Virus genome (UHGV): UHGV-0095065
DNA length: 21,484 bases
Direction: 5' to 3' (one strand)
Source of the DNA: a virus
A program made the translations under genes and the position numbers. Below are positions 3,218-16,578 of this stretch, piece after piece. The notes beneath the pieces were generated by a model that saw nothing but the letters and a program-made list of their open reading frames with translations, was not told the DNA's origin and did no database searches. The stretch's first letter is position 1. Each line of letters starts with the position of its first letter.

Positions 3218-3536
3218 TGATTTTTACCGCCACAGTGGCGCTGTTTGCAGGAGCATTTTCCCAGGCTACCCCCGCGGCCACCGCACCGTCTGCAGCCAGC
3301 TGCACAACCCCGTCCTTCAGATAAACCACCGCGCCGGACTGAATGTCGTCAGCAGACTGTTTGGGCAGCAGGAACACGCCTTCGGCAAAACCGTCACCGG
3401 CCTCACCGGCAGGAATATCGGTAATGGCCACGGCCACCATACTGCCGACCACCACCGCAGCACCGCTCAGGATGGTCTGATCTCCGGCATTCACCAGTTC
3501 AATGGTGGTACCGTCCTGTACAAAATTTTTCGCCAT
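3210..3536 (-). CDS. Putative head decoration / capsid-associated protein (Ala/Val/Gly-rich, DUF2190-like)
   Basis: 108 aa with RBS GGAGAAAC upstream; directly downstream of the major capsid gene; composition typical of small capsid accessory proteins. Confidence 0.5.
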   Translation of the reverse strand: MAKNFVQDGTTIELVNAGDQTILSGAAVVVGSMVAVAITDIPAGEAGDGFAEGVFLLPKQSADDIQSGAVVYLKDGVVQLAADGAVAAGVAWENAPANSATVAVKINV

Positions 3537-12478: not shown

Positions 12479-14425
12479 TCATGCCGCGGCGTCCGCGTTA
12501 TTCACTTCCACCGTAATGCTGTCTATCAGTACCGGGTAAGTCGCACCTTTGGTAATGTCTGTCACATGCAGTTTATCCGCCGCAAAGGCACTGACCGGTG
12601 ACTGCGTCAGCGTGAACGGTGTGCCATCCTGACCATCAAGAACCGGCGTCACCTGAAGGCTGTTATTCCCGGCAAAGCGGAAGGCCAGCGTATGCCATTC
12701 GTTATCAAATGCGCCAAAGCTTCCCAGCTTCAGGTTGTTTGTCGCCACTTTCGCATTGTGGTACATCACATTCAGGTCTTTTGCATCCGTCTGGATGTAG
12801 AACGCTGCCAGCAGGTTATTCCCCCCATCGCCGGTCAGGGCAACGCCCTGTGGCAGTGAAGATACCGGCCAGTAAAACGCCATAACATACTGGTTCGCCG
12901 CCAGCGCTCCCGAAGCCTTAAAGCGGCAGCGAATCTGCCCCCCTTTCTGTAACAGAGCCGCGCCGTTGCCCGCAGCGTACTCCAGCACCCAGGTGCTTTT
13001 ACCGGCTTCCTTGGTCAGCTTCACAGCCTTACCTCCGGTTCCCTCCGCATCGCTGACCACTTCTGCCCTGCCGCCACTGGCTGACCATCCCTGTGCTTTC
13101 AGGCTTCCCTCTGACTCGCTGGCAAGGTAAGAGAGCAGTGTTGTGACGCCTGTGACTTCTGCACCGGAAGGCGATGACGGGCGCACTTCTGATACTGTCG
13201 ATGATGCCCCCGCGTTTAGCGCCACTCTTCCCGCATGGCGCAGAATCGCCGTTGCCAGACGGTCGGAAATAATCGCGCGGCGAGCCCATGAACTGAAATG
13301 GCTCTCCCTGTCCTGTGACGTCCAGGTGGCTGAGCTGTCACGCCATTTCGAACCGTAATACCCGATACCCGGAATGTCCGGGTCTTCTTCCGGTTTGTTC
13401 GTCGGCACATTCACCCCGTTCTCATCCGTCATGAACGGTACGAAATGGATATTCTTTTCCGTTTTGTTTTTATAGCTGCCGTACACCGTCTGGTACGTGG
13501 ATTCGTTCTTCTGCTTCCAGAAATACGTCGTGTCCCCGCATATCCAGGGAACACCGCCAGCAGAGCCACCAACGCACTGGCCTGCCATATCCGTCAGGTC
13601 TGCACGGAATTTATCAACCAGCGCACCAAACTGTGCTGCGTGATTTCCGGGCGTGCCGCCAAAATCAAATTCCCCCTGCATCCACACCACGGCAAACAGC
13701 ACATTTTTCGGGTTCTTCTTCAGTGCTGCTTTTGTTCGACCGATAAGGTCCTTATACAGCGGCTTGTCCACACCCCAGCGGGTTGAATTCTCCGAGGCAC
13801 CACTCGCATCACTGTATGTGCCATCGGCTCCGGTGGTGAACGCAGAGCCACCACGGCAGCAAGGTACCAGCAGAATGCCCGCATTCGCCGGTATAAACGG
13901 CAGCAGTTTTTTGGCGATATGCAGCCCCTGCCCCACGGTTCCGTACTGCCCCTTTGACAGATCCGCTTTCGGATGGTTAAGGCGGCTCATGTCCTGCACA
14001 TCATGCAGACAATGGTCCGCCGGAATGATGTCGTTATATCTGCATGCTGCACCACCCGGTGTCACCGTACTGCGACGCGCCAACTGCTTAATACGCGGCT
14101 CCGGACGGTCATATGTCTCCGGCAGCGGAAGACCTTCACCATACGACATGCCGTTTGACTGCCCTGCCAGAACCACAACAAAGTAATACTCCGGGTCGCT
14201 GGTGGCACTGATTACTGCACCTTCTCCACCTGTCGGCTTCACCACAACAGGTGTGCTCACATCACCTTCTGCGACAATCGCCTGAATAAGTGCTGCGCCA
14301 TCATCCGTATACGAAGAAAACGGCCCACCGTATGGTTGCCATCCTTCACGAATTTTTTGCGCAAGTGCATCAGCAAGGTCTGACGGCGATGCCGTCCTGA
14401 CCACATCGTAATGTTTAAATGTCAT
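12479..14425 (-). CDS. nanS-p: Prophage sialate O-acetylesterase (NanS-p-like; SGNH/SASA domain)
   Basis: 648 aa; RBS GGGAGGA; internal VVVLAGQSNGMSYGEG contains the GQSN(M) SGNH-hydrolase motif; size and position (downstream of the stx-equivalent locus, upstream of lysis genes) match the NanS-p esterases of Stx prophages. Confidence 0.8.
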   Translation of the reverse strand: MTFKHYDVVRTASPSDLADALAQKIREGWQPYGGPFSSYTDDGAALIQAIVAEGDVSTPVVVKPTGGEGAVISATSDPEYYFVVVLAGQSNGMSYGEGLPLPETYDRPEPRIKQLARRSTVTPGGAACRYNDIIPADHCLHDVQDMSRLNHPKADLSKGQYGTVGQGLHIAKKLLPFIPANAGILLVPCCRGGSAFTTGADGTYSDASGASENSTRWGVDKPLYKDLIGRTKAALKKNPKNVLFAVVWMQGEFDFGGTPGNHAAQFGALVDKFRADLTDMAGQCVGGSAGGVPWICGDTTYFWKQKNESTYQTVYGSYKNKTEKNIHFVPFMTDENGVNVPTNKPEEDPDIPGIGYYGSKWRDSSATWTSQDRESHFSSWARRAIISDRLATAILRHAGRVALNAGASSTVSEVRPSSPSGAEVTGVTTLLSYLASESEGSLKAQGWSASGGRAEVVSDAEGTGGKAVKLTKEAGKSTWVLEYAAGNGAALLQKGGQIRCRFKASGALAANQYVMAFYWPVSSLPQGVALTGDGGNNLLAAFYIQTDAKDLNVMYHNAKVATNNLKLGSFGAFDNEWHTLAFRFAGNNSLQVTPVLDGQDGTPFTLTQSPVSAFAADKLHVTDITKGATYPVLIDSITVEVNNADAAA

Positions 14426-14619
14426 GAATCCTCCCGGCCGGGATAGTGTACTGAATCAGATAAAGAGCGGGCTGAAGTCCGGAAGTTACAGGACAATGGC
14501 AGAAGGGAGACTTACAGCCCGCAATTCGAAAAAGGCCGCGCAGTTGCGCAGAGTGATTACCATGGGGTATTATTCGCCAGCTGAAATATTACTTCACGTT
14601 TTGTTGTTTATTCCTTGCC

Positions 14620-14648
14620 GCCCGCGTCTCCCAGCGCGGGCTTTTTTT
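14620..14648 (+). terminator. Intrinsic terminator, plus-strand orientation
   Basis: GCCCGCG-TCTCCCAG-CGCGGGC followed by TTTTTTT on the plus strand. Confidence 0.55.
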
Positions 14649-14652
14649 GCCC

Positions 14653-14679
14653 ATAAAAAAAGCCCCTCCGGAGAGGGGC
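14653..14679 (-). terminator. Intrinsic terminator, minus-strand orientation
   Basis: Minus-strand GCCCCTC-UCCG-GAGGGGC (perfect 7-bp GC-rich stem) followed by UUUUUUUAU; lies about 400 nt downstream of the TerB-like gene and about 230 nt upstream of nanS-p. Confidence 0.7.
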
Positions 14680-15075
14680 TTCGCTACGTGTCTGTTAGCC
14701 ATATGCATGGTGCCGGGTGCCTCCCGGTGAGTTCAGTATCAGCACCTGAACCCGCACAGAAAGGATAGAGTAGAAACACCTGCGCTGATATGCCCCTCCG
14801 CTCAGGGGGATTCACCATGCCAGTTTCTTTTAACAAACTCCCCGCAAACCAGACAACTGTCAACCGTCTGAATTGTGAGACATTTAAAATTTTCAGGGCA
14901 TGACTGATACCCGGCTAACTACCTGACATCTCCTTTTTCACCAAAGGAAAAAGCACCACCACAATACCGACCACCAGCACTCCATCCGCCAGCACCGACA
15001 TGATCCTGCTGGTGAAGTCCACCATCACCACCAGAAACAGCAGGAGTGCCACAGCGGCCAGACGCAGTTTTACCG

Positions 15076-15507
15076 TCACAGGTGGTTCTCCAGTCGCAGG
15101 CCAAGAACACCGGCGATCTCTTCCAGAACCTTACGCTCTTCCGGCTCAATTTCACCATCTGCTTCAGCAATGGCCACCGCCACATCCAGCACATCTTCCG
15201 CTTCACGCGTATCGTGTTTCACATCTTCAATTTCACGCAACGCCGCTCGACGACCAATTTTAAAGTTGGTGTCAAGCTGACCTGTGATCGTGGCACTGAT
15301 GGCATTAATTTCTGACGTAAACGCGGACAACGCAGGCTGGTTACGCAAGACCTGCTCGATCTTCGCTTTCTCTGAAGCCTCACATTCACCATCTGCATAG
15401 GCCACCAGATAGGCAGCATTAATAACCGCCTGTGCCAGATCACGTTTCTCAAACTTTTTAATTTCCGCTGCTGCTCTGCGGGTTTTCTTTTTGAAAATAC
15501 CAAACAT
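15076..15507 (-). CDS. TerB-like (tellurite-resistance TerB domain) protein
   Basis: Start at ATG 15507 (AGGAA 7 nt upstream): MFGIFKKKTRRAAAEIKK...AAYLVAYADGECEASEKAKIEQVL...DVAVAIAEADGEIEPEERKVLEEIAGVLGL; repeated ADG-E helix pattern typical of TerB fold. The track ORF start at 15579 is probably too far upstream. Confidence 0.65.
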   Translation of the reverse strand: MFGIFKKKTRRAAAEIKKFEKRDLAQAVINAAYLVAYADGECEASEKAKIEQVLRNQPALSAFTSEINAISATITGQLDTNFKIGRRAALREIEDVKHDTREAEDVLDVAVAIAEADGEIEPEERKVLEEIAGVLGLRLENHL

Positions 15508-15637
15508 CGTGACGTTCCTTTGGGTGGGTGAGCCAACGCCCGGGAGCGATCTGCCCACAGAGAAAGTCACACTGACCACTCCGTAAGCTCACCCCCGAAA
15601 GGCTCTGTGGTTGATATGCGCCGGGCGTGGCGCGGAT

Positions 15638-15663
15638 ACAAAAAAGACCCGCAAAAGCGAGCC
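15638..15663 (-). repeat. 26-bp direct repeat copy A (terminator-like), downstream of the moron gene
   Basis: ACAAAAAAGACCCGCAAAAGCGAGCC; 24/26 identical to copy B; on minus-strand RNA forms GCUCGC-UUUU-GCGGGU (with G-U pairs) followed by CUUUUUUGU. Confidence 0.55.
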
Positions 15664-15683
15664 ATAACATCAAAAAATAACTA

Positions 15684-16205
15684 TTATCCTGAGAACTTCT
15701 GATCCGCAATGAAGCGAATCATCATGCTCTTAATATATTCAGACGCTTCTACGTATCGTTCAGCCTCTTCACCTTTGGAAACATATAACTCAGCTCGTTT
15801 ATCACTTCTGAAGTTGGAAAGCGACATCCCTATTTTTATAAGGTCATCGCAATACTCCATAGTTATATATGCTGGCACAAACATATTTCCCGTCGGAGTT
15901 TCATTAATTAATGTACATATTCTGAACTCAATCACACCATCCTTATTCATCCCAAGACATGAGGGTGAACATTCCTCATACCTTCCGCTCTCGGTCATCC
16001 GCTCGATCCTGACCAATCGCTCCATATCCAGCGCAGAGCTTTCACCACTAAGCGAACACGCATAACACTTCTTCAGAAGTTTAACTTCCCGCCTCAGGGA
16101 ATCATGAACACGCGCGTTATGCCTTCTCATCTCATCATATGCATGTTGAATATCACTATACGTAATCACCGAACGGACCTCCGGAAGCGACTGAAAAATA
16201 AACAT
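15684..16205 (-). CDS. Hypothetical protein, AT-rich moron (174 aa); CxxC...CxxxC cysteine pattern; function unknown
   Basis: Start ATG 16205 with strong SD GGAAGGAGGT; MFIFQSLPEVRSVITYSDIQ...KKCYACSLSG...EECSPSCLG...; coding region visibly AT-rich compared with its GC-richer flanks (judged by eye); occupies the position where Stx phages carry stxAB. Confidence 0.75.
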   Translation of the reverse strand: MFIFQSLPEVRSVITYSDIQHAYDEMRRHNARVHDSLRREVKLLKKCYACSLSGESSALDMERLVRIERMTESGRYEECSPSCLGMNKDGVIEFRICTLINETPTGNMFVPAYITMEYCDDLIKIGMSLSNFRSDKRAELYVSKGEEAERYVEASEYIKSMMIRFIADQKFSG

Positions 16206-16246
16206 TCTATACCTCCTTCCAGAAAGAGTCATGTCCTGGTCACGAC

Positions 16247-16272
16247 ACAAAAAAATCCCGCAAAAGCGAGCC
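16247..16272 (-). repeat. 26-bp direct repeat copy B (terminator-like), between tRNA-Arg(UCU) and the moron gene
   Basis: ACAAAAAAATCCCGCAAAAGCGAGCC; same hairpin plus U-tract on minus-strand RNA as copy A. Confidence 0.55.
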
Positions 16273-16286
16273 CGGGAAAATAAGTG

Positions 16287-16363
16287 TGGCGCGTTGTACT
16301 GGATTCGAACCAGTGACCGATTGCTTAGAAGGCAATTGCTCTGTCCGGCTGAGCTAACAACGC
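16287..16363 (-). tRNA. argO: tRNA-Arg (anticodon UCU), argO-like
   Basis: Minus-strand GCGTTGTTAGCTCAGCCGGACAGAGCAATTGCCTTCTAAGCAATCGGTCACTGGTTCGAATCCAGTACAACGCGCCA; cloverleaf with T-loop GGTTCGAATCC, anticodon loop CTTCTAA, encoded CCA. Confidence 0.9.
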
Positions 16364-16376
16364 TGAATACCGATAA

Positions 16377-16453
16377 TGGACCGCCATCGAGGACTCGAAC
16401 CCCGCGCAGCCAGCTTCGAAGGCTGGCGCTCTATCCCGATGAGCTAATGGCGG
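16377..16453 (-). tRNA. argN: tRNA-Arg (anticodon UCG), argN-like
   Basis: Minus-strand CCGCCATTAGCTCATCGGGATAGAGCGCCAGCCTTCGAAGCTGGCTGCGCGGGGTTCGAGTCCTCGATGGCGGTCCA; anticodon loop CTTCGAA; full 7-bp acceptor stem (C1-G72). Confidence 0.85.
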
Positions 16454-16462
16454 TATGTGATA

Positions 16463-16538
16463 TGGTGGCCCTTGCTGGATTTGAACCAGCGACCTGGCGA
16501 TTATGAGTCGCTCGCTCTCACCACTGAGCTAAAGGGCC
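16463..16538 (-). tRNA. ileZ: tRNA-Ile2 (anticodon CAU, lysidine type; Met by anticodon alone), ileZ-like
   Basis: Minus-strand GGCCCTTTAGCTCAGTGGTGAGAGCGAGCGACTCATAATCGCCAGGTCGCTGGTTCAAATCCAGCAAGGGCCACCA; very similar to E. coli ileX/ileY tRNA as recalled. Confidence 0.85.
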
Positions 16539-16578
16539 GGGCGCAGGATAATAACGGTACGTAACTAATCCTGCAATA

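Follow-up and report, generated by a model that had tools for sequence, protein, structure and literature searches.

In lambdoid phages, accessory genes have been described under the moron concept of Juhala and Hendrix, and most module junctions in mosaic phage genomes keep no trace of their origin. Here we examine a moron-like cassette in a 21,484 bp stretch of UHGV virus genome UHGV-0095065; the whole of this stretch, the DNA that was analysed, is called the window. The cassette lies between two near-identical copies of a predicted transcription terminator. Like a lambdoid moron, it is a discrete extra gene of atypical base composition, with a promoter-like site and a terminator, placed between genes that are adjacent in relatives. 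It also lies in a Q-antiterminated late operon, where Shiga toxin (Stx) genes and other cargo are found. It differs from lambdoid morons in that the upstream terminator and the moron terminator are near-identical direct repeats, a joining footprint absent from most described morons. A site for moron insertion is known downstream of pR' (PMC4104026).

A comparable arrangement is the promoter-early stem-loop (PeSL) of T4-type phages, where an ORFan lies between two motifs in RB49, a single motif is found in phi1, and mini-circles have been detected (Arbiol et al. 2010, PMC2839356). Homologous recombination between motifs was proposed as the mechanism (PMC2839356). The window locus has the same geometry, with two motif copies at the filled site and one at the empty site. 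However, PeSLs measure ~100 bp, include a strong promoter and occur in many copies through hyperplastic regions, whereas the window repeat is 29 nt long and holds a terminator only. The window has two copies and nearly all related loci have one, so that neither the PeSL motif nor its dispersal was found here.

Short conserved boundary sequences have been proposed to mediate lambdoid mosaicism (PMC3029335). Module junctions at the window locus likewise fall at a short conserved sequence, with at least four alternative modules diverging after the same U-tract, but the boundary is itself a functional-looking terminator and is duplicated rather than merely shared. Stx2 phages, represented by PA2 (KP682371), carry the same ileZ-argN-argO cluster and terminator, and their cargo starts right after the U-tract. 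In contrast to the window, their stx2 segment has no second terminator copy within 10 kb, replaces TerB/DUF3927 and has its distal junction elsewhere. A search within one library of papers found none describing the argO terminator or its duplication. The window locus is a clean, nucleotide-resolved case of a known phenomenon, a moron gained at a terminator; no new type of element is involved. One terminator serves to align, to the nucleotide, the filled and empty alleles, another, unrelated cassette at that point and the stx2 junction. The locus is a concrete case for intrinsic terminators as short-homology crossover points for accessory-gene gain in Stx-like prophages.

Repeat copies, filled sites and empty sites

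A sequence-only reading of the window had noted near-identical 26-bp direct repeats on either side of a moron gene. The 26-mer ACAAAAAARWCCCGCAAAAGCGAGCC is present exactly twice, at 15638-15663 and 16247-16272, and a search of all 21,484 bp for further copies found these two only. No match occurred in 100 dinucleotide-preserving shuffles, even when three mismatches were allowed. A repeat finder lengthened the direct repeat to 29 nt (15635-15663 and 16244-16272), with 26 of 29 positions identical and a spacing of 609 bp. This 29-nt repeat is real and non-random, and the arrangement first noted from the letters was confirmed. The parts of the locus are as follows.

16244..16272, minus strand: proximal copy of the 29-nt repeat, predicted intrinsic terminator of the ileZ-argN-argO type tRNA cluster (terminator scan, repeat finder, folding)
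15635..15663, minus strand: distal copy of the 29-nt repeat, predicted terminator of the moron gene (terminator scan, repeat finder, folding)
15664..16243, minus strand: cassette interior, 580 bp, absent from empty-site prophages (alignment to empty loci)
15684..16205, minus strand: ORFan coding sequence, annotated as 173 amino acids from ATG 16205; the likelier start is GTG 16169 (161 amino acids)
16204..16232, minus strand: sigma-70 promoter-like site ATGACT-17 nt-TAGAAT, of putative function (scan; position kept in all diverged homologues)

The proximal copy starts 14 nt past the 3' end of tRNA-Arg(UCU) (16287-16363, minus strand), and the distal copy starts 20 nt past the stop codon of the open reading frame (ORF; stop at 15684-15686).

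Related loci were surveyed in a set of 5,426 complete E. coli genomes. Most matches to window positions 15400-16600 covered about half of the query within a 591 bp span of the target, and tRNA-Arg adjoined TerB. Alignments of FORC_043 and MCJCHV-1 showed a single copy, GATACAAAAAAGGCCCGCAAAAGCGAGCC, between the TerB leader and tRNA-Arg; the single-copy empty site was also seen in phage Evi. When the window was aligned by BLAST to four empty loci, the alignments stopped at 15660-15663 and resumed at 16244, and the pieces overlapped by the repeat. Comparison with prophages lacking the moron, which the sequence-only reading had proposed, showed that a single copy marks the empty site exactly where two copies would collapse into one. 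A 171-nt empty-junction probe was matched over at least 80% of its length in 834 of the 5,426 genomes; a few of these matches are at filled sites, where the tool linked the two pieces. These alignments point to a discrete insertion at an intergenic junction, absent from close relatives, as is expected of a moron.

The cassette itself was rare. When the interior was used as a 583-bp query (15664-16246), matches were found in four of the 5,426 genomes, all at 100% identity, and a fifth genome gave a partial match at 79.5% identity. The sole further locus in a contig scan was a metagenome-assembled contig with 99.6% identity to the window across 2.9 kb. GC content was 41.9% in the cassette interior, compared with 53.3% in the window and 49.5-56% in the neighbours; its base composition is unlike that of the surrounding phage genes, another feature of morons.

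Strains MBT-5 and AUSMDU00014361 carry the cassette beside a diverged TerB gene, which showed ~70 mismatches to the window in ~540 bp (~13%). Across 15494-16347 these strains differed from the window only at 15647 and 16270, each inside a repeat copy. Because TerB differs by ~13% while this tract is nearly unchanged, an identical cassette is present in diverged prophage backgrounds, which indicates lateral spread and a recent arrival.

Precise breakpoints at the repeat ends, single-copy empty sites, foreign composition, a promoter-like site and a terminator of its own together support the reading of an inserted cassette. In the account that we consider probable, a 580-bp AT-rich moron was inserted just downstream of the tRNA-cluster terminator by recombination within the terminator sequence, and the terminator was duplicated in the process.

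The same alleles could be ordered the other way, with the cassette-bearing state as the older one and single-copy sites produced by recombination or slippage between the direct repeats. RecA-independent or Red-mediated deletion can act on direct repeats of 29 nt at a spacing of 609 bp, and the empty-site copy could plausibly be a hybrid, distal-type towards the U-tract and proximal-type towards the tRNA. Against such a deletion, empty sites are ~200 times commoner than the cassette and occupy far more diverse prophage backgrounds, and the same terminator is present as a single copy beside stx2 and other modules. Foreign GC content and 100% identity across backgrounds that differ by ~13% next door also argue for a recent arrival. 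We regard deletion as quite unlikely.

Terminator structure and the cargo gene

Terminators were located by a consensus scan of the minus strand and their folding energies were computed; ViennaRNA was used to assess local context. At the distal copy the scan detected the hairpin GGCTCGC-TTTT-GCGGGTC (15663-15646, loop UUUU) followed by TTTTTT (U-tract 15645-15640), with a 7-bp stem of five G-C pairs and two G-U pairs. At the proximal copy it detected CTCGC-TTTT-GCGGG (16270-16257, loop UUUU) followed by ATTTTTTT (U-tract 16255-16249), with a stem of only 5 bp. Hairpin energies in the minus-strand RNA were -9.9 kcal/mol for the distal copy and -7.2 kcal/mol for the proximal copy. The plus-strand RNA of both window copies reached just -3.2 kcal/mol, with an A-run before the hairpin and no U-run after it. 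Because the two strands differ in this way, the orientation specificity through G-U pairs that had been proposed from the letters holds. The accompanying proposal that each copy folds as a terminator was borne out in part: both copies were detected by the scan with a U-tract, but the proximal copy forms only a weak 5-bp hairpin, and in its local context ViennaRNA favours an alternative 5-bp pairing. On the transcribed strand both copies combine a GC-rich hairpin with a directly following U-tract, and we read them as putative unidirectional intrinsic terminators.

The single-copy version in related prophages folds at -12.6 kcal/mol, and two basal G-C pairs of this form are gone from the proximal copy (GG to AT on the plus strand). 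In strain MBT-5 the proximal copy folds at -4.6 kcal/mol. The distal copy in the sister strains GE3, MBT-5 and AUSMDU00014361 is identical to the empty-site single copy. As a separate observation, loss of the basal G-C pairs from the proximal terminator is common to all cassette-bearing loci (window 16249-16272 against 3241-3264 of locus L002), with energies of -7.2 or -4.6 as against -12.6 kcal/mol. We speculate that the weakened proximal hairpin may let transcription of the tRNA unit run on into the moron.

ATGACT-17-TAGAAT was the only promoter-like site found by the scan in 14400-19200. Nine of its 12 positions agree with the consensus, and it lies just after the proximal terminator. When the upstream regions of seven homologous contexts were aligned, the spacer from the upstream U-tract to the promoter-like site varied in length and sequence, while the positions of the -35-like ATGAC(A/T) and the -10-like TA(A/G/T)AAT were kept and the -10 overlapped the first ATG. 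In every homologue, GGAG followed by a start-capable codon was present ~36 nt farther downstream; in the window this codon is GTG 16169, in five homologues ATG and in one TTG. The protein is conserved from the position of GTG 16169 onwards, and several remote homologues begin at that residue. As the conserved GGAG and start-capable codon lie where this conservation sets in and where remote homologues have their N-termini, the true product is probably ~161 amino acids long, from GTG 16169, rather than 173.

The ORFan matched only phrog_5091, a group of unknown function. It had no match in Pfam or PADLOC and no sequence relatives in PDB, and no match to the protein was found by tblastn among 50,697 phage records. 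Domain searches of the cassette's one ORF found no recombinase, transposase, integrase or nuclease domain. A first AlphaFold model, built on seven sequences, was poor (predicted local distance difference test score, pLDDT, 59.5), and its Foldseek matches were meaningless. The gene appears to have its own factor-independent terminator, a 7-bp GC-rich hairpin with U6 located 20 nt past the stop and conserved in homologues. Promoter-like site, ORFan and distal terminator copy together have the classic moron layout, and the putative unit, with its predicted promoter, fits the moron definition on every feature that sequence can test.

Cargo junctions, homologous cassettes and a proposed route of insertion

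The argO terminator was also examined at other loci. IMG/VR loci with the exact core sequence, 120 among the matches listed, formed a sample whose counts are not population frequencies. tRNA-Arg lies upstream in ~112 of these 120 listed loci, and the downstream sequence diverges directly after the U-tract into four main classes and nine others. The commonest class among the listed loci (68) is joined straight to the region 3' of stx2B in PA2; the others are the stx2 type (20), the TerB leader (14) and a two-gene cassette (9). A second copy of the terminator family was found in 0 of the 120 listed loci, three of which scored twice through a different terminator, GCCCGC-TTTTT-GCGGG, ~1.8 kb upstream. 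A role for this terminator family as a pervasive linker around many cargos was rejected, as no second copy was present in the 120 listed loci.

Phage PA2 and one stx2 prophage carry the same terminator (GGCTCGCTTTTGCGGGCCTTTTTT) after argO, and the region upstream of stx2A starts at the end of the U-tract. Homology of the stx2 loci to the window begins at 16249, and no second terminator copy was found within 10 kb of stx2. The medically relevant cargo slot, which in related phages carries the Shiga toxin genes, has its exact boundary at the U-tract of the argO terminator. Because stx2 and the commonest downstream module join the terminator without a second copy, duplication, as far as these junctions tell, is not required for cargo exchange at the argO terminator and is not a general mark of cargo there. 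The suggestion of the sequence-only reading that a duplicated terminator delimits a cassette, or is a recombination footprint, therefore stands for the window, where filled and empty alleles and foreign GC content were found, but does not extend to the site in general, where stx2 and the commonest module are single-copy.

Junction coordinates are 4990-5030 in L007 (phage PA2), 2512-2534 in L016 and 2300-2525 in L014 (BEN2908). In BEN2908-type loci the argO terminator runs straight into the sequence found 3' of stx2B in PA2, and because of this junction they look like stx-empty alleles.

A different two-gene cassette occupies the same site in strain CFIAFB20190167 (L006 3236-3860). Its ORFs encode 69 and 74 amino acids, with one weak DUF7336 match. 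It has a distal hairpin of its own, GGTCGCTATTGGCGGCC, and the U-tract region is repeated over 15-20 nt; the cassette is bracketed by GGCCTTTTTTGTATC(Y)GCG, which is common to its distal hairpin and the proximal terminator. This cassette type was also seen in hit H79 (PV0838) and in ~9 IMG/VR loci among the matches listed.

Direct repeats around a discrete insert, with a single copy at the empty site, could also come from a transposon, a miniature inverted-repeat transposable element (MITE), an integron-type cassette or a homing element, the repeat being its target-site duplication or attachment site. The repeat finder detected no inverted repeats in 15400-16500, cassette ends included, so the cassette lacks terminal inverted repeats, and its single ORF has no transposase, integrase or nuclease domain. 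Repeat length also varies with context, from 15-20 nt through 29 nt to ~50 nt, and to our knowledge known target-site duplications are far shorter than a 29-nt imperfect repeat. With no inverted repeats in 15400-16500 and no recombinase in the cassette, a transposon, MITE or site-specific element was rejected, and we consider this origin scarcely credible.

Homologues of the cargo gene occur in other contexts. The family is small, with 7 clusters at 90% identity among 5.8 billion proteins and 19 representatives at E<=1e-3 among 1.84 billion. Diverged homologues (62-86% amino-acid identity) sit upstream of TerB, a holin, a TolA-like gene or other ORFs. In all seven diverged contexts a terminator of the form GG(C/T)TCGC-NNNN-G(C/T)GGGC(C)-Tn is present on both sides of the gene, although at L011 the contig end leaves just the 3' half of the upstream copy. 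Loops elsewhere are UNCG-like (TACG, CACG, TTCG, TGCG), whereas the UUUU of both window copies is the loop of the tRNA terminator.

Flanking copies resembled each other to different extents. At L017 they share the hairpin and 16 nt of the holin leader. At L017 and L020 the flanking direct repeats measure ~45-50 nt and run beyond the hairpin (to ~50 nt at L020), and the within-locus partner is the best match overall. Since the within-locus copies of L017 and L020 match each other best, local direct duplication is, on this comparison, seen in three independent contexts, namely the window, L017 and L020. The window, L019 and L020 have the same loop in both flanking copies, and the loops differ between contexts. 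L010 and L012 differ in loops and stems between the two sides. A search for an E. coli empty site of the L017 (holin-upstream) context gave no match, and this contig is probably not from E. coli.

Differences such as those at L010 and L012 are what would be expected if the repeats had no role in recombination and each unit simply had its own terminator, alike by family ancestry or by convergence on a good hairpin. Related, non-identical terminators do flank the homologues elsewhere, and a terminator is expected anyway after a tRNA cluster and after a moron. This explanation seems to us very unlikely for the window. Identity at 26 of 29 positions, including the loop, the U-tract and 5 nt beyond, exceeds what functional convergence needs; homology to empty sites breaks off precisely at the ends of the repeat; the L017 repeat runs 16 nt into the holin leader; and the scan found the other terminators of the window to be unrelated to the repeat in sequence.

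A PeSL-like mobile cassette is another explanation of the same contexts. Here the repeats would be active ends, and a circle of gene and one terminator would excise and reintegrate at any homologous terminator. The filled and empty architecture is exactly that of ORFan192 of RB49/phi1 (PMC2839356). The gene family occurs in at least five different downstream contexts, always bracketed by terminators; an identical cassette is present in diverged backgrounds; and the pattern of loops, shared within the window, L019 and L020 and varying between contexts, fits as well. However, the repeat is only 29 nt long with the promoter outside it, the loops at L010 and L012 differ between sides, and the family is not dispersed, with two copies in the 21-kb window and no second copy in the 120 listed loci. 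We judge such an element to be unlikely. The broader proposal, in which the terminator would be a functional recombination linker and the ORFan family a self-contained mobile lambdoid cassette with the argO terminator as one landing pad, is equally doubtful. If true, it could also explain why stx2 and other cargo join exactly at the argO terminator.

Insertion by recombination within the resident terminator, the account that we prefer, would proceed from a donor in which the cassette's own terminator and the one preceding it were homologous to the resident tRNA terminator (GG(C/T)TCGC-NNNN-GCGGGCC-Un family). Insertion within terminator sequence is proposed because the cassette terminator belongs to the family of the resident one. 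Two sequential short-homology crossovers between phages, or integration of a PeSL-like circular intermediate, would duplicate the resident terminator as a 29-nt direct repeat. Phage recombinases acting on 15-30 nt of homology may have carried this out, and heteroduplex repair or gene conversion may have left the UUUU loop in both copies. Override of late-operon terminators by Q is established lambdoid late-gene regulation. In the lysogen the proximal copy would end tRNA transcripts and the distal copy moron transcripts, so that TerB and the late genes would be insulated; after induction, Q-modified RNA polymerase would read through both copies.

Several points weigh against this account. The direction of the event, insertion as opposed to deletion, is read only from frequency and composition. 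With a weak hairpin (5 bp, -7.2 kcal/mol), the proximal copy may be a poor terminator. No duplicated copy accompanies stx2 or the commonest downstream module at this same junction. The UUUU loop of both window copies is of the resident type, while UNCG-like loops are found in homologous cassettes elsewhere; one simple crossover would not predict UUUU in both, unless heteroduplex repair, gene conversion or a donor with a UUUU loop were involved. Finally, the identity tract of 15494-16347 is wider than the repeat-bounded unit and takes in the universally conserved TerB leader and part of tRNA-Arg. Because this tract exceeds the repeats, homology arms for present-day spread may be provided by the tRNA genes and TerB leader, and not by the 29-nt repeat.

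The late operon around the cassette

The window corresponds to the late region, from Q to lysis, of an E. coli prophage of lambdoid, Stx-phage-like type and is transcribed from the minus strand. Prophages of E. coli strains GE3 and TB06053 are 99.8% identical to the window across this region. From the GE3 annotation and Pfam, the minus-strand order is Q, a small ORF, a DNA methyltransferase, tRNA-Ile, two tRNA-Arg genes and the proximal copy, followed by the hypothetical protein of the cassette, the distal copy, TerB-family, DUF3927, a DUF6645/SASA esterase of NanS-p type, and holin and lysozyme genes. The resident features are as follows.

18210..19031, minus strand: antiterminator Q gene (PF03589), which defines the late operon containing both terminator copies (Pfam, GE3 annotation)
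16579-17637, minus strand: DNA methyltransferase (GE3 annotation and Pfam)
16287..16538, minus strand: tRNA cluster tRNA-Ile2(CAU)/tRNA-Arg(UCG)/tRNA-Arg(UCU), the upstream module with the duplicated terminator; the two tRNA genes upstream of tRNA-Arg(UCU) occupy 16377-16538
15508..15637, minus strand: TerB leader, a conserved and strongly structured 5' leader and the downstream flank of the insertion point (same sequence in filled and empty loci)
15076..15507, minus strand: TerB-family gene, the nearest resident gene on the downstream side of the insertion (GE3 annotation, Pfam)
14425-12479, minus strand: NanS-p-type DUF6645/SASA esterase gene (GE3 annotation, Pfam)

The TerB leader (~130 nt, from the distal terminator to the TerB start) is identical among prophages whose TerB coding sequence differs by ~13%. 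Its predicted fold is a long and stable hairpin, with -66.7 kcal/mol over 166 nt (z = -2.3). No Rfam family was found for the repeat or for the TerB leader. The leader may be a cis-regulatory leader or a small RNA (sRNA).

In AUSMDU00014361 the three-tRNA array is reduced to one 71-nt gene annotated as tRNA-Met (L005 3889-3959, corresponding to window 16319-16474), apparently by a deletion between tRNA-Arg(UCU) and tRNA-Ile. This strain also differs in the Q gene and its neighbours, yet its cassette is 100% identical.

Downstream of TerB, Rfam gave a strong match to the sRNA STnc100 at 14649-14849 on the minus strand (147 bits). Near it lie a convergent plus-strand terminator (14620-14641) and a minus-strand terminator (14551-14536) upstream of the NanS-p-like gene. 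A 'convergent sRNA pair at the moron site' has been described in prophages of enterohaemorrhagic E. coli (EHEC) (PMC4104026), and the STnc100 region of the window (14536-14849) matches it.

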